64,000 bases of DNA from an uncultured Planctomycetota bacterium (GTDB taxonomy: Bacteria; Planctomycetota; PLA2; JAEUHO01), in the NCBI GenBank assembly GCA_963752285.1, contig CAVVXN010000004.1, positions 1-64,000 of the forward strand, written 5' to 3'. Positions 708 through 15,477 of the stretch are shown piece after piece. The notes below the pieces were generated by a model. That model had not been told where the DNA came from. It saw nothing but the letters and a program-made list of their open reading frames with translations, and did no database searches. Numbering within the stretch: the stretch's first letter is position 1; the number at the start of each line of letters is the position of its first letter. The translations under genes and the position numbers were made by a program.

Positions 708-3700
708 TCAATCCGGGGTGACGGGCCTGGCGGGGCGGACGCCGAGGTTGCCGTCGCGGTACCCCGGATCGTCCCCGCCGCGGTCGGCCGAGCGCGCGTA
801 CCTGGCGGCGTCGTTCCACGACCCGCCGCGGATCACGCGGAGGCCGGGGCCTTCGACCGTGGGATCCGTGGCGGCCTCTGCGCCGTAGGCGCGGTAGACG
901 TCGGGCACCACTCGTAGACGTTCCCGTGCACGTCGTAGAGTCCGAACGCGTTCGGCGCGAACGACCCGACGGGTGCGTGGACCGTGTGCCCGTCGTCCAC
1001 CTCGTCGGTGTACTGCCACGACGGCGGTCCGCCGTGTTCCTTGCAGTACTTGTCCGCGATGTTGGCGACGCTTGCCCAGCGCCGCGACCTCCCGCCCGGT
1101 GATCCAGGGCTGTCCGTCCCCGCCCGGCACGCGTACTCCCACTGCGCTTCCGTGGGCAGCACGAGGCGGTTGCGCGAGAGCCAGCGGTCGCAGTCCTCCC
1201 ACGAGACTTGCTCGACCGGGTTGCGAGGCGTCAAGGGCTTGTCGCCGGGCGTCTGCCCCGCCTTGTACGTGCTCGGGTCCAGCCCCTCGGTCATCGCCGC
1301 CACTGCGGCCTGCGTGCACTCGTGCTTCGCTAGGAAGTACGGCGAGAGCGTCACCTCGTGCACCGGCGACTCGTCGTCCTCGGCCTCGGGGTCGTAGTTG
1401 GGCGCGTCCATCGGTCCTCCTTCTGCGCACCCATCCGGAACGTCCCGCCGGGGATCAGCACGAGCACGATCGCTGCGTCGTCCTCGTAGACCAGTTGCTT
1501 CGTCTCGGGATCGCGGGTCGGCGAGCGAACCCGACCCCAGATGTGCGAACTCGAAGAGCCCGAGTCGGGATCGGGCCCCAGCGGGACGAGGCCCAACTGC
1601 GGCGTGATCCGCAGCCCGCCGTACTTCGGCGAGGCGGCAATCGCCTCGATCGTCTCCTTCCACGCAGCCTCGTGCTCCTTCAGCGAACGCTCCTCCAGCA
1701 GCGTCACGAATGCGTGGCGGCGCTCGACCTTGGAAACGGCCCCTTCGCCGCGTCCCCCGCCGTCCAACGCGTCCAGCCCCGCCAGCAGATCCACCAGCAC
1801 CTGGTGCTGCCACGCCACCTGGGGGTCGTCGAACGTCCACGTCCGACGCTCTTCCAGGGCCGCCTCGAGCTTCTCGATCTGCTCGCGAACCTGGGCCGCC
1901 TGCTCGCCAGGGCCTTTCGCTTCGCCTCGGCGTCCTCGCCTTCGACCTTCGCTGCTTCGGCGTCGATCTCCTCCAGGCGCTTCCTGCCCGACTCGATCCG
2001 GCTGCGCTCCTCGCCGTGGTCCCGCTCCCGTTCGTCGTCGGTGTAGGGCAGCGCACCCTCGCGGATCGTGGCCAGACGCTTCTGGTGGTCCTCGCGGTTG
2101 CCGAGCACCTCCTGCGCGCCTTGGGTCCAGGCCGCCATCGCCCCGGCCCGCGAGGGCTCCAGCGGCCAGAGCCGCTCCACCTCGTCCACCAAGTCCCGCA
2201 CCCGCTTCGAGTCCGCCAGCCGCAGCACGTCGTCCAGTGCCTTGGCCTTCTCGTTCCGCTCGCGCTCGGCCGCCTCGAGCGCCGCGGCCTTCGCGTTGCG
2301 CTCCCGCTCGACCTGCTCGAGCGCCACTCCCTTGGCATCCCGCTCGCGCTCCGCGTCCGCCAGCGCGTCGGCCTTCTCTCCGAGCGCGACCTGCGTGGCG
2401 GCCCTGGCCTGCTCCGCCTCCTTGCGCTTGCCCTCCACGATCGTCACCACCACGAACGCAGCGACGGCCGCCACCGCCAGCGCGAGGACCCCGACGCGCC
2501 GAAGCGTGCGCCGCGTGCTCGCCTGCTCCCGTTCCCGGATCGCCGTCTCCCGCAGTGCCTGCGCGCGCTCGGTGAGCGCCCTGGCCCGCCTGCCGCCCGG
2601 CCGCTTGCGCTCCGCCTGGGCCAGCGCCGCCACAGCCCGGTCCACCTGCTGGAGCCTCGCCTCCCCCGTGAGGCCCTCGGCCGACTCGATGGCCGTCCGG
2701 GCGTCGCGCAGCAACCCCTCCCGCTCCCGCTCCGCCGCATCCTCGACCTGCCACGCGCGCACGGCTTTCGCCATCTCCTCGGCTGAGGCCGGCCGCGCCC
2801 CTCTCTCCCGCGCCAGCGCCCGGGCGCACAGCGCCGAGAGCGCCTCGGGCACCGAGGGCTCGACCTCGCGGGCCGGGGGTGGGTCCTTCCGCAAGAGGAG
2901 CGCCGCGTACTCCGCGTAGGAGCGGAACTCGTAGGGGAGCCGCCCCGTCAGCACCTCGAAGAGCATCACCCCCAGGCTGTAGACATCGCTGCGCTGGTCC
3001 ACCTCCGCCAGATGACCCAGCGCCGCTTCCGGCGCCATGTAGCCCGCCGTCCCCATGGCGCCGCCTTCCAGCGTGTGGAAGCCCGCGTCCTTGCGCATCA
3101 CCTCCACTTGTTCCTGCCAGGCCGACGACGCAACGTCCTCCTTGCCCTCGAGCCGCGCCAGGCCCCAGTCCAGCAACACCACCTCGCCGTAGTGACCCAG
3201 CGCCACGTTGGCGGGCTTGAGGTCCCGGTGCACCACCCCCTTGTCGTGCGCGTAGCGCAGCGTGTCGCAGACCTTCAAGAAGGGCTCCAGCAGTGCGAGC
3301 CGCTCCTCGAAGGGCGCGCCCTTCTTCTCCTGGATCGCGTCGGCCAGCGTGCGCTCGCCCCTGACGTAGCGCATCGTGTAGTAGGGGATGCCGGTCGGTG
3401 TCTGCCCGATCTCGTAGACCGGCACGATCCCCGGGTGCTCCAATCCCCCCGTCACCCATGCCTCCTGCACCAGCCGGGCCTTCAACTGCTCGAACACCTC
3501 GGACTCGGGCGTGTCCTTCCCCGGTCGACTCGCCTCGAGCGGATGCGAGGGCGTCTCCTCGGAGGCCCCCCGCTCCGCGTGTGGACGCACCATCTTGAAC
3601 GCCACGCGCCGGTTCATCTCCGTGTCCAGCGCCGCGTACACGACGCCCATGCCGCCGATGCCCGCAGCCTCGAACCCCACGTAGCGGTCCTCGGGCAACT

Positions 3701-4058
3701 CGCGCAGCGGCGCGCGGATCGGCACCCCCAGCACCGAGAGCGCGCGCGTGAGCTTCGCCCCGTCCTGGCCCAGCGCCACGTGGACCCTGCGGTCCAGGCC
3801 CCCGTGACGGGTGAGCGCCACCTGCGCGTCGCCCCCCGCCTCGCCCAGCAGCCGCTCGACCTCGGTATGGATGCGAGCGAGCGCGTCGTCGGACAGTCGC
3901 GCGATGTGGGCGAGCTCGGACACGAAGGTCACGCCCGGCTGATCGCGCCGGTCCCAGTAGCGCTGCAGCGCCGCCGCGACGTCACGCGCCTCCGCAACTC
4001 CCAGCATCAACGCCGCGTCGGCCGCCAGCAGCTCCCGGAACTCCCTGCCTGCGTCCAT
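708..4058 (-). pseudogene. Ser/Thr kinase - TM - coiled coil - FGE-sulfatase (C-type lectin fold) protein, multiply frameshifted
   Basis: Kinase motifs GIGGMG, VAFK, HRDLKPAN, DWG, GTAGYMAPE and DVYSLG, then a TM segment (VGVLALAVAAVAAFVVVTIV). FGE motifs IPGGTFRMG, PVEQVSWED, LPTEAQWEYACRAG, NAFGLYDVHGNVYEWC and RVIRGGSW...NLGVRPAR are spread over three frames, about 7 shifts between ~900 and ~1920. Confidence 0.85.
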
Positions 4059-4097: not shown

Positions 4098-4511
4098 CTA
4101 CGGGTTGGCGACGCCCCGCAACCCGGAGTCCCAGGCACGCCTCTGATCGGTCCAGAGGGGGATGGCGGCGAGGGCGCGGAGCGCCTTCTCCCCACGCCCT
4201 GGACCCTGCCCTCCGTCGAGCACGCATGCCTGGATCCCGGGAGCGAGATCCAGCAGTCTCATCACCTGCGTCACCCGCGCCCGCGACACCCCGACGAGCC
4301 GGGCGAGGTCGGCCTGGTCGCGGACGGCGCCCGAGCGCAGGATGCCCTGCCAATGGTGGGCGAGGGCGAGCAACCGGGCCACGCGGGGGACCTTTGCAGG
4401 CGCGGGGGGCGGCGCCTCCGCGGGCGCCTCGACGTGCGGGACCGCCAGGAGGTGCCGCCGCCCCCGGTTCCCGTTCGTCTCGCGGACGTGGAGCCGGACG
4501 GTCCCACTCAC
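4098..4511 (-). CDS. Small HTH-containing protein typically encoded downstream of large serine recombinases
   Basis: PRVARLLALAHHWQ..DQADLARLVGVSRARVTQVMRLLDLAPGIQ...W..QRR. Its GTG start overlaps the stop of a recombinase C-terminal remnant. Confidence 0.75.
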   Translation of the reverse strand: MSGTVRLHVRETNGNRGRRHLLAVPHVEAPAEAPPPAPAKVPRVARLLALAHHWQGILRSGAVRDQADLARLVGVSRARVTQVMRLLDLAPGIQACVLDGGQGPGRGEKALRALAAIPLWTDQRRAWDSGLRGVANP

Positions 4512-4711: not shown

Positions 4712-5618
4712 ATGCCCAAACGGCTGAAGATGGAGTTCAACGGCCTGGTGATTATGGACTCGCTACCCGCTACGGAAGCGAACACAGCCCGAGTTCTTGA
4801 GGAGAGGCTTCAACAAGTCCTACCCGCGCCCTACCCGGTGTGGCGCGTGCCGGTGCCAGATCGGAGGCTTCTCCTGAGTGCATTGGCTCATTTTGCGGCG
4901 AGTGCCAGCGCGGTTCGTGCCTGTCCTCCACTTCGAGGTGCACGGTACACGTGAGGGCCTCCAACTCGCCAGCGGCGAGCAAGTGGAGTGGGAGGATCTA
5001 CGAGCCGCCTTGACCGAGATCAACGTCGCTACAGGCGACCGGGTTCTCCTGTGTCTAGCCGCATGCCACGGAGCTCACGCCATTGGCCTGATCGACGTTA
5101 CGCAGCCCGCACCATTCTGTTTTCTCCTCGCCCCAGTAGATGAGGTATGGAACCTCCCAACGCTCAGAGGATTCGAAGCGTTCTACCTGCGCCTGCTGGA
5201 AACACATAGCGCCAATGAGGCGATGCGGGCAATGCGCGACTCCCATGCGCCTGACGAGTGTGAGTTCGAGGCTATCTCCAGCAAGCGATTCTTCATCAAG
5301 GTCATGGCGCGTGAGCTTCGGGAGTCGTGGGACTCCGCAGCCAAGGAGGCTCGAATTCACCGAATCATGGAGAAGGTGGCCGAGCGTTCTCCTGGCCATC
5401 GCTACGACGTCAGCATGAGAGCGAAAGCACGCGAAGCGCTGTCCTTCTCCGAGATCGAGAGACGCTGCAAGGGGTCTGCGCGTATCTTCTTCATGGTGGG
5501 TCGCATACCTGACGTCTACGAGGTGGACGCGATCTGGCCTGAAGTGCTCGAGGCGGCACTACAACCGAATGCACGACTGCCTCGTTCCCAGGGCAGGGAG
5601 CCGACACAGCCGGGGTAA
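4712..5618 (+). CDS. Caspase/CHAT-like (His-Cys dyad) hypothetical protein, one apparent frameshift near 4880
   Basis: ATG 4712 with a GGAG RBS. PVLHFEVHG and LLCLAACHG motifs lie in the 4878-5618 frame. GC is lower than in the flanks. Confidence 0.55.
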
Positions 5619-6019
5619 CCAGAGGTCGCATCAACACCCCTGGGAGTCAGTCCGAGCGCGCATTGGGCCAACGCCGCCGCTGCGCGATCCAGAGCGGGAG
5701 CATCGCGACGGGGAGCAGTTCCCGGTGCAACGGTCTGCCCCGATCCCCGCCCCCCTCCAGGACAGAATCTCCTCCTGTATGTCCGGCGCCAGCCAGAGCG
5801 GGCTCATCACCTGCGCCACCCTGGCCCGCGACACCCCAACGAGCCGCGCGAGGTCGGCCTGGTCGCGGACGGCGCCGGATCGGAAGCCCCTGCCAGACAC
5901 GATGGCCGCCGCCTTGGCAGGGGTCGTAGCGGCTGAGCCCCCAGCGGTCTGGGGTTGCCAGGGCGTAAACCGAGGCCGTTCCCGAATGCGACGTGCCGTC
6001 GCAAGCCGGAGGCCCAGCC

Positions 6020-7138
6020 ATGCGTCAGCGTACCCAGTTCATCGGAATCGACCTCCACCTCCACAGCGTCACCCTTGCGGTCCTGCCCGAGGACGCTGCG
6101 GCGTGCAGCCAGGTCCAGACGATGCTCCCCGAGCCGGCCCGCATGCGGCGGTTCTTCCAGAGGGTCTTGAAGGAGGGACCCGTGCGGGCCTGCTACGAAG
6201 CCGGCGGGTGCGGGTACGTCCTGCAGCGAACGCTCGCCACGTGGGGCGTGCCGTGCGAGGTCGTCGCCCCGAGTCTGATCCCCCGTCGCGCGGGCGATCG
6301 CATCAAGACCGATCGTCGGGACGCCGAGAAGCTCGCCCGATACTACCGCGCCGGCGAGCTCACGGCGGTGCGCGTGCCCACCGAGGAGGAGGAACGTACT
6401 CGATCCCTCATCCGCTGCCGGTGGGCGCTGACGCGCGAGATCCTCGCCTCGCGGCACTACATCCTCAAGCTGCTCCAGTCGCGCGGACATCGCTTCTCCG
6501 GCGGCAAGAACTGGAGCGACGCCTTCTGGAAGTGGTTGCGCGGGCTCGCGCTCGTGGGGGACGACGCGCTCACGCTCGGCCTCTACATCGAGCTCCTCGA
6601 GCACAAGCTCGCTCTGCGCACTCGCATCGACGACCGCCTGCAGAAGATCGCCGGCGAACCCCGATGGCGAGAGGTGGTCGGGCGGCTGCGGTGCCTGCGG
6701 GGCATCGAGACCCTCAGTGCGCTCACCCTGGCCAGTGAAATCGCCGACGCCAAGCGCTTCGCCCGCCCCCGCCATCTCATGGCGTACCTGGGCCTGAACG
6801 TCAGCGAGTACTCCTCCGGCAGCTCGGAGCGTCGCGGCGGAATCACGAAGGCGGGCAACTCCCACTGCCGCCATGTGCTTGTCGAGGCTGCATGGCACTA
6901 CCGCCACCCGCCTCGGTTGGGCACGGCCCTGGCGGCGCGCATGGCGGGTCAGACCGAGAGCGTGCGGCTCCACGCCATGCGCGCCCAGCGTCGTCTGCAC
7001 CGGCGGTTCAAGGAGCTCGAGATCCGGATGGCCTCCACGAAGGCCGTGGTCGCCGTGGCTCGCGAGCTCGTCGGGTTCGTGTGGGCGCTCATGCAAGGCG
7101 AGGAGCGTTTCCTGGCCGCGCGAGGGCCGCAGAAGTAG
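6020..7138 (+). CDS. IS110-family DEDD transposase/recombinase
   Basis: FIGIDLH, CYEAGGCG, IKTDRRDA, YLGL..SEYSSG and GGITKAGN motifs; GGAGG RBS before ATG 6020. Confidence 0.95.
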   Translation: MRQRTQFIGIDLHLHSVTLAVLPEDAAACSQVQTMLPEPARMRRFFQRVLKEGPVRACYEAGGCGYVLQRTLATWGVPCEVVAPSLIPRRAGDRIKTDRRDAEKLARYYRAGELTAVRVPTEEEERTRSLIRCRWALTREILASRHYILKLLQSRGHRFSGGKNWSDAFWKWLRGLALVGDDALTLGLYIELLEHKLALRTRIDDRLQKIAGEPRWREVVGRLRCLRGIETLSALTLASEIADAKRFARPRHLMAYLGLNVSEYSSGSSERRGGITKAGNSHCRHVLVEAAWHYRHPPRLGTALAARMAGQTESVRLHAMRAQRRLHRRFKELEIRMASTKAVVAVARELVGFVWALMQGEERFLAARGPQK

Positions 7139-7370
7139 TTTCGGTCGGGGAGGCACGTCGCGAGGGAACCCTCGTCACCACTGTGCGAGCCCGGGGGCGG
7201 AGCCTCTGTGCATTCGCGGTGCCAGAGAGAGGTCACCTCGACGGACAACGTTCCATGCGGTTTCGATCCGCGAACATCAGACTGTCACGACGTCGAAGCG
7301 TCCTCCCCGGCCCTCTCCCCTTCCTGCCCGCCCCGTAGGGTCCCCCGGGCTCGGACAGGTCGGTCACCGC
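7139..7370 (+). ncRNA. Putative IS1111 bridge RNA / seekRNA
   Basis: Contains CACCACTG (7176-7183) and TGCCAG (7220-7225), which match the two strands of the pre-insertion target, and ACATCAGAC (7274-7282), which matches the circle junction. Boundaries are approximate. Confidence 0.75.
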
Positions 7371-7546
7371 TTGACGGCGGCGGCCACATCAGTGGTGCGC
7401 GAGGGCGAGGACGCGGGCCACGCGGGGAATCCGCTCCGGGGTGGTGGCCGGGGCCGCGTCGGGGGCGCCGGGCGCTACGTCGTCGCCCACGGCGGGCGCA
7501 CTCCGTCCCCCGCGCCGGGCCGGCAGGCGGATGGTCACCCGCCCGC

Positions 7547-8010
7547 TCACGGTGCGAGCTCCGCGGAGAGCCCCTGGATCCCGGTCGCCCGGAAGGCCAC
7601 CACCGCCGTCCCCGCGGCCCCGTCGTAGTCGATCCCCTCGACCAGTAGCCGCATGACCCGGGCCTGCTCCTCGGCGTGGAGAACCTCCCACACGGGGTCG
7701 AACAGCGTGAGCGCGCGCCGCAGGTCAACGGGATCGACCTCGGCACCCTGCTCACGCACCGCCTCGAGCACCCGCGCCTGTAGGCCCGCGTCTCGCCCGA
7801 CGGCCCGGATCTGCGCGACGACCAGCGACTCGATCGTGTGCACCGGGGCGGTCGGGTGCGGGCAGGCCTTCCACCCGTCCTTCTGCGTGCGGCGGCAGAG
7901 GTAGTAGCGGTAGACGCGGCTGCCTCGCCGAGTCCACGCCGCGCCCATCGTTGCCCGCCACGGCGCGGAGCGGAGCAACCCCGAGAGGAGCGACGTCCCG
8001 CGGCGGCCGC
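7547..8010 (-). pseudogene. Large serine recombinase remnant (zinc-ribbon and C-terminal part only)
   Basis: LLSGLLR..M....RVYRYYLC.....GWKACP...IESLVV..I...FDPVWEVL..EQARVMRLLVEGIDYDG; no catalytic N-terminal domain. Confidence 0.8.
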
Positions 8011-8212
8011 CCCGGCGCTTCTCCTGTGGCCCCGAGCGGGGGCCATGCTGTCTCTGCCTGCACCCCCGCGAACGAGCCTGGAGGCGACCGCAAGCTCGTC
8101 GGACCATCTTCTGAGGGAGGGTGCTCGACCACCAAGCCGGCCCCGGCGGCACGGGGACCTGTTCTCTGGAGCGAGGGGCCACCGCCACGACTGGGGTGCG
8201 GGCTCGAGCGTC

Positions 8213-13656: not shown

Positions 13657-15477
13657 TCACCCCGCGAGCGCGACCGCCGCCGCGATCTGCGACAGGTGGG
13701 TCAGCCCCTGGGGGAAGTTCCCGAGCATGGCCCCGGACGCAAGATCGACCTCCTCCGAGAAGAGGCCGAGGTCGTTGGCCGTCGCCAGGGCCCGCGCGTA
13801 GACCTCGCGCGCCTCGTCGAGGCGGCCCTGCCGGGCCAGCACCTCGGCGAGCCAGAACGTGCAGGCGATGAACGACCCCTCCAGCCCATCGAGCTGGTCC
13901 GAGCCCGCGCCGTACCGGCGGAGGAGACCGTCCTCCTCGAGCTCCTCGCGGATCGCGTCCGTGGTGCGGACCATGCGTGGGTCGTCGTAGCCCACGAACC
14001 CGAACACGGGCAGCAAGAGCAGCGCGGCGTCCATCGCCTCGCCCCCGAGGGTCTGCACGAACACGCCGCGGTCCGCGTCGTAGCCCTCGTCCTCGATCGC
14101 CTCGCGGATCGCCGCGCACTCCTGTTTCCAGGCGTCCACCGGGCCGTCCCGTCCGAGCGCCTCGGCCAGCCGGACCCCCCGGTCGAAGGCCGTCCAGCAC
14201 ATGGCCTTCGAGTGCACGAAGTGGCGTCGCTCTCCCCGGACCTCCCAGATGCCGTGGTCGGCCAGGCGCCAGCACTTCCGGGCCTCCTCGACCAGATCGC
14301 AGAGGAACGCCCAGTACTCGTCGTCGGGCGAGGCGCCGCGCTCGTGGCGGCGCCAGGCGAGGTCGAGCAGCTCGCCGTAGACGTCGTGCTGTCGCTGTGT
14401 CTCCGCGGCGTTGCCGATTCGGACCGGGCTCGACCCCCGGTAGCCGGAGAGCTCGGGTACCTCGTGCTCGGGCAGGCGACGCTCGCCACCCACGCCGAAG
14501 AGAACCTGCACCTCGCGCGCGCTGCCCGCGGCGCTCCGCGTCACGAATCGCGAGAAGCCGTCCGCCTCCTTCTCGTAGCCGAGCTGCCCGAGCGCACGCA
14601 TGGCGAACACGGAGTCGCGGATCCACGTGAACCGGTAGTCCCAGTTGCGGGAGCCTCCCAGCACCTCCGGGAGGGAGGTCGTGGCCGCCGCCGCCATCGC
14701 GCCGGTCGGCGCGTTCGTGAGGCCCTTCAGGACGACGGCCGATCGGCGTGTGTGCTCGTCCGACACGAGGTCGTGGTCGCCTTGATCGCTCCAGGCGCGC
14801 CACCAGTCGCGCGTCTCCTCGAGGCGCTCGTCGATCTCCTCGGACGTCGAGGGCCGCGCCACGCCGCGGTCGAGCTCCTCGGGGCGCCGGTGCTCGATCG
14901 CGAGGCGGAGACGTTCTCCCTCCCTGACGACCGCCTTCCCTCGGAGCGCGTGGCGTTCGTGGCGTTCGAGAGGGAGGTCACCGCTCACGAGGAGGCCCGA
15001 GCTCCCGCCCATCAGGCAGAAGTACGAGTCGTCCTCGGCGGCCCGGACCCACGGCGCCACCGCGCCGTAGTCGAAGCGCGGCCGGGCGTCCAGCTCGAGC
15101 TCGACCTCCCCCCGGACGCCCTCGACGACGCGGAGGAGCTGGCGGTAGGGGGCGTGCCGTCCGCCGCGGCGCATCGCGAAGAAGTCGAGGAGTCGCGCCT
15201 CGCCCTCGTCCGTCCGGAACGTGGTCTCGAGGACCAGGGAGGGACCCTCGTACCGACGCGTCGTGTCGAACGCTCCCGTGGGCTTGAGGGCCAGGAACCC
15301 GCCCTTTCGAGGGTCCAGGAGCGCGGCGAAGCACGAGGCGGAGTCGATGCGCGGCATGGCGCACCAGACGATGGTCCCGTCCCGGGCGACGAGCGCGGCC
15401 GCGTGACAATCCGAGAGGTATCCGCAGTCCGCGATGGAGGGGCCGGGGCCGTCGTGCTGGTCCTTCGCTCCCGCCAT
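13657..15477 (-). CDS. Glycoside hydrolase family 15 (trehalase/glucoamylase-like)
   Basis: AAATTSLPE, RNWDYRFTWIRD, GIWEVR, NDLGLFSEE and GNFPQGLTH motifs. Confidence 0.95.
   Translation of the reverse strand: MAGAKDQHDGPGPSIADCGYLSDCHAAALVARDGTIVWCAMPRIDSASCFAALLDPRKGGFLALKPTGAFDTTRRYEGPSLVLETTFRTDEGEARLLDFFAMRRGGRHAPYRQLLRVVEGVRGEVELELDARPRFDYGAVAPWVRAAEDDSYFCLMGGSSGLLVSGDLPLERHERHALRGKAVVREGERLRLAIEHRRPEELDRGVARPSTSEEIDERLEETRDWWRAWSDQGDHDLVSDEHTRRSAVVLKGLTNAPTGAMAAAATTSLPEVLGGSRNWDYRFTWIRDSVFAMRALGQLGYEKEADGFSRFVTRSAAGSAREVQVLFGVGGERRLPEHEVPELSGYRGSSPVRIGNAAETQRQHDVYGELLDLAWRRHERGASPDDEYWAFLCDLVEEARKCWRLADHGIWEVRGERRHFVHSKAMCWTAFDRGVRLAEALGRDGPVDAWKQECAAIREAIEDEGYDADRGVFVQTLGGEAMDAALLLLPVFGFVGYDDPRMVRTTDAIREELEEDGLLRRYGAGSDQLDGLEGSFIACTFWLAEVLARQGRLDEAREVYARALATANDLGLFSEEVDLASGAMLGNFPQGLTHLSQIAAAVALAG

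Follow-up and report, generated by a model that had tools for sequence, protein, structure and literature searches.

Within a window of 64,000 nucleotides (nt) from an uncultured Planctomycetota bacterium (positions 1 to 64,000 of contig CAVVXN010000004.1, GenBank assembly GCA_963752285.1; G+C content of the window, 72%), a 1,496-base-pair (bp) insertion sequence (IS) is located at positions 5897–7392 of the forward strand. Comparison of its ends, its transposase and its 3′ non-coding region with those of related elements indicates that it is very probably an IS110-family IS of IS1111-type architecture, which carries a bridge/seekRNA of about 170 nt in its right non-coding end and moves by guided recombination between a circular form and a target. 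As far as sequence comparison can tell, membership in the bridge/seekRNA kind is supported, since the region downstream of the transposase gene contains a structured RNA with two loops that covaries with both the target and the donor ends.

The borders of the element were defined by alignment of its flanks to an intact paralogue (4098–4511) of the gene that it interrupts. The paralogue aligned to the left flank up to position 5895 (86% over 101 nt) and to the right flank from position 7393 (74% over 77 nt). Because this alignment leaves a single dinucleotide between the two flanks, the empty site reconstructed in an initial annotation of the window is sound, and there is no duplication beyond the shared bases, a characteristic of the IS110 family, in which target duplication does not exceed a short shared core. 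The left junction reads ...CCCCTGC-CAG|ACACGA (CAG at 5894–5896) and the right junction reads ...CCACAT-CAG|TGGTGCG (CAG at 7390–7392), so that AG is found at both junctions with a C before each; AG being common to both ends, the element can equally be placed at 5895–7390. From left to right on the forward strand, the parts are the left target half TGCC (LT−4 to LT−1, 5891–5894), the left copy of the AG core (5895–5896), a left-end extension ACACGA (5897–5902) and the left subterminal inverted repeat TGGCCGCCGCC (5903–5913), which forms an 11-bp perfect inverted repeat with the right subterminal repeat (7376–7386); this in turn is followed by the right-end extension CATC with the second AG copy (7387–7392) and by the right target half TGGTG (RT+1 to RT+5, 7393–7397). 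The extensions were parsed by eye, and the inverted repeats are set in from the ends by 6 nt on the left and 4 nt on the right. Non-coding DNA amounts to 123 nt upstream and 251 nt downstream of the transposase gene. The element is present in a single copy within the 64-kb window, which contains no second exact copy of the target site.

The transposase/recombinase gene (6020–7138, forward strand) encodes a protein of 372 amino acids (aa), the length also found in most relatives, and a GGAGG sequence lies 7 nt upstream of its start codon. Both the N-terminal DEDD/RuvC-like domain (PF01548, DEDD_Tnp_IS110, E = 4.1e-11) and the C-terminal Tnp domain (PF02371, Transposase_20, E = 2e-19) scored above their cut-offs, and the protein matched NCBIfam NF033542 (IS110 family RNA-guided transposase) with 216 bits against a cut-off of 140. 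In an alignment of 26 sequences with the window protein as the first row, E60, D98, D101, S265 and S266 were invariant and D11 was nearly so; judging from position and motif, these residues appear to be equivalent to D11/E60/D102/D105/S241 of IS621. The motif GL-x-x----SG is present as GLNVSEYSSG in the family consensus. The matches to solved structures were distant (ISCro4 transposase, PDB 9t56, E = 1.9e-7; IS621, 8wt6, E = 2e-5). A protein search yielded many relatives, among them proteins of 60–85% identity, the closest being 85% identical and nearly all of them on short metagenome contigs, and found the exact window protein on one contig only. The initial annotation had described an intact RNA-guided recombinase; the open 372-aa frame and the conserved catalytic residues agree with this description, in which the word intact is best taken to cover those two features.

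A scan of species-representative genomes provided at least 80 loci of relatives with DNA, which shared 36–56% aa identity. Inverted repeats were sought between the upstream and downstream gene flanks in the 54 loci with enough flank; 36 loci and the window gave 37 elements with mapped ends, and the alignment of RNAs and guides comprised 32 relatives (36–56% aa identity) and the window element. The consensus of the accepted inverted repeats was (A)TATGGAAnGACC. According to the by-eye parse, the left extension exceeded the right extension by 2 nt in all 37 elements, and its length of 6 nt in the window element compares with 3–4 nt in most relatives. Automated end-finding on non-seed loci was noisy (18 proposals, about 10 of them evidently wrong) and carried no weight in the statistics. 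The same applies to the eight proposals that had family-like ends (L003, L009, L050, L054, L065, L069, L072 and L077), in which guide 3 matched at 7–8 of 8 positions and, in seven of the eight, guide 1 matched at 6–9 of 9.

The downstream regions of the relatives aligned into a conserved scaffold with a closing stem and a pair of arms, both of which contain an internal loop. In the window, the long form of the bridge/seekRNA gene extends over about 170 nt (7143–7312, forward strand), and R1, a covariance model built from the family alignment, matched positions 7146–7303 with 89.3 bits. The closing stem (7143–7153 with 7302–7312) is family-wide and lies outside the R1 model; the longest complementary run averaged 12.4 for own flanks against 6.5 for cross-locus combinations (n = 55). 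In the target arm, the outer stem is formed by 7162–7165 with 7236–7239, plus 7172–7173 with 7229–7230, and the two proposed loop strands (7175–7183 and 7219–7228) enclose an inner hairpin (7184–7218), whose stem (helix 3; 7184–7188 with 7214–7218) was 97% paired and showed double changes in 4 of its 5 pairs. The donor arm (7240–7294) consists of an outer stem (7240–7243 with 7291–7294) and an inner stem (7257–7260 with 7268–7271), which correspond to helices 4 and 5 and were placed from the cmsearch alignment, with proposed loop strands at 7244–7256 and 7272–7290.

The 25 pairs of the proposed structure were scored on the 33 aligned sequences and compared with 500 shuffles. Pairing was found in 91.8% of cells against 79.7% in the shuffles, none of which was as high, and 17 pairs were double-changed against 8.5 expected; slid-partner controls were 26–44% paired. 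R1 matched 75 of the 80 listed loci in addition to the window, 43 of those loci being non-seed. All matches were on the transposase strand and, in the loci checked by coordinates, downstream of the transposase stop codon. For 76 distinct model-fitted sequences the corresponding values were 93.7% and 78.3%, a comparison in which the fitting to the model favours the structure. The model also gave a match of 74.4 bits downstream of the ISSso6 gene and a weak one of 27.1 bits downstream of ISEc45. A scan of positions 5600–7700 against Rfam with E values up to 10 returned two chance matches to viral motifs only.

Covariation between the RNA and its surroundings was assessed by comparing every RNA column with every flank position in the 33 elements, with locus labels permuted. 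By this permutation, covariation was significant for guide positions of the right target (RT), left target (LT), right end (RE) and left end (LE). On the 5′ side of the target loop (guide 1), columns 44–47 were complementary to RT+4 to RT+1 in 27, 29, 29 and 30 of 32 elements, respectively, and complementarity also extended to LT−1 (28/32). On the 3′ side of this loop, columns 103, 104 and 106 had the same sense as LT−3 to LT−1 (18/31, 29/32 and 30/32), and columns 109 and 110, beyond the core, matched LE+1 and LE+2 (33/33 and 23/33). In the donor loop, columns 181–184 of the 3′ side had the same sense as RE−4 to RE−1 (33, 33, 33 and 32 of 33) and continued after the core into RT+1 (18/32), and the 5′ side was complementary to LE+2 and LE+3 (27 and 23 of 33). 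The match to own flanks compared with that to flanks of other loci was 77% against 39% for guide 1, 73% against 54% for guide 2, 85% against 74% for guide 3 and 72% against 54% for guide 4. Natural retargeting was also seen: L036 and L037 differ in one base of guide 1 and in the matching base of the right target, and in L011/L016/L015, as in L020 compared with L022/L026, the targets track their own guides. L066, L069 and L072 represent three insertions of one element, all of them at the site predicted by its guide. The 5′ non-coding region gave no family signal for guides (own mean, 4.9; cross mean, 4.8). The guide segments thus covary with the targets among homologues, a point on which the initial annotation had made its interpretation depend.

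With the loop columns fixed by the family, the guides of the window copy could be read individually. The strings quoted in the initial annotation were all found where they had been placed (CACCACTG at 7176–7183, TGCCAG at 7220–7225 and ACATCAGAC at 7274–7282), as were its junction strings. On the 5′ side of the target loop (7175–7183), CACCACTG is complementary to C-AG-TGGTG of the forward strand, its positions 7176–7180 pairing with the right target half; it fills the right-target guide columns, matched its own flank at 8 of 9 positions and matched it better than the flanks of all 31 other loci. The 3′ side (7219–7228) contains a guide with the same sense as TGCC-AG-A (7220–7226; 7 of 9 positions), of which 7220–7223 are identical to the left target half and the final A matches the left end in a handshake-like manner. 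The 3′ side of the donor loop (7272–7290) has the same sense as the right end, ACATC-AG (7274–7280), and the C at 7275 matches the ACAT end of the element, most relatives having ATAT in both places. The donor guide proposed earlier, ACATCAGAC, holds in its ACATCAG portion, which is the right-end guide; its trailing AC matches the left end but was given no weight, because in the family that column tracks the right target. The guide for the core and left end is expected on the 5′ side of the donor loop (7244–7256); in the window copy it is weak. Of the 12 variable target positions, 10 were matched by the flanks of the window element itself and at most 7 by the flanks of any other locus. Three of the four guides are convincing in the window copy, and the two target guides together specify the predicted 11-bp site, TGCC-AG-TGGTG, in which the element sits. 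The proposal that an IS110/IS1111-type element exposes readable guides in a 3′ non-coding RNA is thereby supported for the right target (CACCACTG), the left target (TGCCAG(A)) and the right end (ACATCAG).

The alignment of ends also defined the extent of the core. The left-junction dinucleotide was AG, at the same geometric position, in all 37 elements with mapped ends, and the right-junction dinucleotide was AG in 25, AA in 8, AC in 2, TG in 1 and GG in 1. In most cases, a T preceded the core on the side of the target and a C on that of the element, and because of this difference the shared core is AG at most. The CAG core of the initial annotation was too long by one base: in the window element, the C before AG is the last base of the left target at one junction and of the right end at the other. 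In 27/33 elements, guide 1 was complementary to the second base of the core at the right junction; since that base varies and guide 1 tracks it, target and donor may differ in the second base of the core. As a separate observation, the two versions of the core always segregated in the same way, AG to the left and the second base of the target itself to the right, and never in reverse. This hints that A is the one core base shared in every case and that the exchange is one-sided at the dinucleotide, or its resolution biased.

Other features of the ends and of the RNA were noted independently. Just inside the left inverted repeat, TGGCAGGGG (5915–5923) is the reverse complement of the left target CCCCTGCCA (5886–5894), and a second TGCCAG (5956–5961), 40 nt further into the 5′ non-coding region, could pair with TGGCAGGGG. 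No comparable reverse-complement match to the left target of at least 7 nt was present in the relatives, and matches of at least 9 nt occurred in 0.12% of cross-locus pairs. Positions 7181–7197, which comprise the end of guide 1 and the inner target-arm stem, are complementary with one mismatch to 7342–7358, a 17-nt stretch between the RNA and the right inverted repeat that is not used by the minimum free energy (MFE) fold. This degree of complementarity was reached in 1 of 500 shuffles, and all of 34 relatives had at most 11 nt; the stretch might keep the target loop of long transcripts sequestered, or could be a chance match. A conserved 5′ motif, GGCACGA (columns 10–16 of RNA alignment A2), can pair with the 3′ strand of the donor-arm outer stem (columns 196–201), in competition with the 5′ strand CGACG, and may represent an alternative conformation. 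Two relatives had several RNA matches within about 1–5 kb, namely L028 (3911–4081 and 4781–4951) and L074 (1323–1473, 3984–4129 and 6138–6289), which may reflect elements arranged in tandem or nested in one another, or RNA modules on their own.

Several results weigh against the interpretation of the element as a mobile, RNA-guided IS. Among the matches listed, the closest relative with DNA was 56% identical, and the 36 of 54 loci used were accepted by eye, on the basis of a repeat in a consistent position and before any guide was counted, the other 18, which had no clear repeat, being left out. The register of guide 1 was poor in 3 of 33 relatives (L046, with a one-base shift, still matched; L062 and L079 did not). 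The fourth, left-end guide of the window copy agreed at 3 of 5 family positions, and its two mismatches adjoin the core. The fold of 7139–7392 was not unusually stable (z = −1.53), the single-sequence MFE was −81.4 kcal/mol against −53.0 for the consensus structure, or −68.6 with the guides forced open, and the MFE fold pairs part of guide 1. Because the MFE fold differs from the consensus structure, the internal loops are a comparative and not a thermodynamic result; the expectation of the initial annotation that the guides lie in internal loops was borne out by the covariation-supported structure and only partly by the single-sequence fold.

These points have to be considered together with two other explanations of the same sequence. 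One is that the matching strings are a coincidence in GC-rich DNA and that the 3′ region encodes no guide RNA. The 3′ non-coding region was subjected to 2000 dinucleotide shuffles, of which 748 (37%) contained an 8-mer match to the 40-nt target and 210 (10.5%) a 9-mer match to the 43-nt junction; both were present together in 61, so the k-mers alone are not beyond chance, and the lack of an Rfam match would fit coincidence as well. The significance comes from position, since the three strings fall in exactly those loop columns that covary with the own flanks of the 32 relatives, in a structure backed by compensatory changes, and we consider coincidence highly improbable. The other explanation is that the element is a fossil, with an open frame and a decayed match between RNA and donor, that is no longer mobile. 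The state of the fourth guide, the single copy in 64 kb, the occurrence of the exact protein on one contig and the decay of the surrounding gene and recombinase are all compatible with this explanation, which we nevertheless regard as rather unlikely, given that the full-length open reading frame (ORF) keeps every family-invariant residue, that the 11-bp inverted repeats are perfect and that three guides match at 7–8 of 9 positions. The 6-nt left extension may have shifted the register of the fourth guide, an account weakened by L027, which has an extension of the same length and the family register.

The architecture of the element corresponds to that of the IS1111 group in most respects. The subterminal inverted repeats (11 bp) and short extensions (6 and 4 nt) conform to the group, in which repeats of 7–17 bp are typical; the longer non-coding region, with the guide RNA (7146–7303), is downstream of the gene (251 against 123 nt); and the guide complementary to the top strand is 5′ of that for the bottom strand (7176–7183 before 7220–7226, and likewise in the family columns). 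The exception is the transposase, which at 372 aa is longer than the approximately 330–350 aa of the group, a soft feature in PMC11187229. In the same source, the IS1111 seekRNA elements ISEc11, ISPa11, ISKpn4 and ISPst6 are described as having a DEDD transposase, subterminal repeats, a long downstream non-coding region and a long-form RNA of 145–170 nt with short matches to both target strands, the top-strand match being 5′; they produce no target duplication, and their targets are often in other mobile DNA. The likeness was judged from these descriptions; the transposases of those elements have about 340 aa as opposed to 372 aa, and the target of the window element, codons of a small helix-turn-helix (HTH) gene, is new with respect to the targets given there.

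The same mechanism would carry another label if the element belonged to an IS110-type branch with a downstream non-coding region and not to the IS1111 family proper. The transposase falls outside the 330–350 aa of IS1111 and inside the 345–385 aa of the ISEc21 cluster, and some IS110-type elements have a 3′ non-coding region (both from PMC11187229); moreover, ISSso6 and ISEc45 are labelled only ‘IS110-like’. On the other hand, the 11-bp subterminal repeat, the right-end position of the RNA and the GL-x-x----SG motif (GLNVSEYSSG) are IS1111 traits, and the top-strand guide precedes the bottom-strand guide as in IS1111 members, the order being reversed in ISEc21 as described in PMC11187229. We therefore consider the IS110-type label unlikely and retain the IS1111-type description. 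ISSso6 and ISEc45, from plasmids of Shigella and E. coli, were the sole named relatives among the 85 of 695 plasmid matches listed, none of which exceeded 44% identity. Both are distant (38.4% and 38.0–38.3% aa identity, respectively, over more than 94% of the length). The ends of ISEc45 fit the family geometry and its target guides were not clear, and the ends of the ISSso6 copy examined could not be resolved. The best match among solved structures, the ISCro4 transposase (PDB 9t56), is very distant, its DEDD and Tnp domains aligning in partial stretches only.

The RNA also resembles that of IS621 (PMC11208160 and PMC11208158). Both have an internal loop for the target and another for the donor, each with one guide per strand around a dinucleotide core (PMC11208160), and in both the 3′-side guides extend into the partner sequence in the manner of handshake guides (PMC11208158); the proteins are distantly related. 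In IS621, as described there, the RNA is in the left end before the gene, whereas in the window element it is in the right end after the gene. The window element further differs from IS621 in that its core reads AG on the gene strand and CT on the complementary strand, in that its inverted repeats are 11 bp and not 2–3 bp, and in that in its relatives the second core base of the target may differ from that of the donor. When the CT strand is read, the IS621 layout is reproduced, the 3′-side guides consisting of target or donor sequence, the core and one or two partner bases (RTG/RDG-like); in this view, the opposite strand carries the RNA and the gene. It is possible, although on balance doubtful, that the recombination site of this clade is the mirror image of that of IS621 relative to the cargo, with AG on the gene strand and handshake guides that read like the gene strand. 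In such an arrangement, flipping the DNA reproduces the IS621 loop layout, with the RNA gene at the same end and in opposite transcription. If this were true, IS1111-type elements would have arisen by inversion of the RNA–transposase module between the ends, and not by relocation of the RNA to the opposite end.

If the element behaves like IS621, ISEc11 and their relatives, it would be excised as a circle in which the right and left ends abut across AG. In this circle, a −35 box from the right end and a −10-like hexamer from the left end would drive expression of the transposase and the RNA, and a recombinase tetramer holding both loops would recombine the circle junction with the target by strand exchange at the core, producing no duplication. 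Circle formation, the junction promoter and tetramer strand exchange are modelled on the work on IS621 and IS1111 seekRNA elements (PMC11208160, PMC11208158 and PMC11187229). A −35-like hexamer, TTGACG (7371–7376, forward strand), faces outward across the right end and may have a promoter role, and TTGAC(A/G) was found in 30 of 35 right ends, 16–19 nt from the junction. The circle of the window element would read TTGACG, 17 nt and then CACGAT from the left end; in the family, the left ends would supply nAnnAT-like −10-like hexamers at a spacing of 16–18 nt. These paired hexamers look like the junction promoter described for ISEc11.

The specificity of an uncharacterized bridge/seekRNA element can thus be read from one copy once a family alignment has fixed the loop columns. 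The analysis also adds a covariance model for a clade of soil bacteria that includes ISSso6 and has no Rfam match in the region searched. Furthermore, natural retargeting pairs are made available, together with a 372-aa recombinase for which an 11-bp code is predicted, and this information could guide tests of reprogrammable insertion. The known picture of the mechanism is unchanged by this element.

The gene interrupted by the IS is on the reverse strand. Its upstream piece (7393–7550) ends in ...LALAHHW-Q according to its translation and the family alignment, and its downstream piece (5647–5894) contains two frameshifts relative to the family. The product is one of a family of small HTH proteins, for which 355 matches were obtained, and has a weak HTH_ParB match. 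The insertion is in the codons for LALAHHW-Q/R, in which A-L-A is invariant; of 34 aligned relatives, 18 have HHW and 7 have HHWQ. When the gene was rejoined in silico, the two frameshifts compensated each other, leaving the HTH segment out of frame compared with the 34 family members and the sequence back in frame near the end; the gene is a pseudogene, unless the assembly is wrong. The uninterrupted paralogue, also on the reverse strand, has the corresponding site at 4347–4358 with a single mismatch, A for G in the core, and this substitution fits the lack of an insertion there without proving it to be the cause.

Upstream of the interrupted gene, an ORF on the reverse strand (7547–8188), whose stop codon overlaps the start of that gene, contains only the recombinase zinc beta-ribbon domain of large serine recombinases. 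No resolvase or recombinase catalytic domain was detected upstream of it in any frame up to 10.2 kb, and the ORF is a truncated serine-recombinase (integrase) remnant. On the side of the paralogue, only a trace of the end of the recombinase gene has been kept. The protein of the target gene had no match in plasmids or in the 80 listed relative loci. The earlier idea that the element targets the H-H-W-Q codons of a gene carried by recombinase islands is accordingly sustained with regard to the conserved codons and loses ground with regard to the island, given that the gene is doubly frameshifted and the adjacent recombinase is a fragment. These families are known to target other mobile DNA (PMC11187229). 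The element may specialize in hitch-hiking on mobile elements, a suggestion drawn from a single insertion. Neighbouring genes include those for a 784-aa Ser/Thr protein kinase (1704–4058) and a protein with an FGE-sulfatase domain (833–2338), both on the reverse strand, and for a GH15 glycosyl hydrolase at 13657–15477; they are ordinary chromosomal context.

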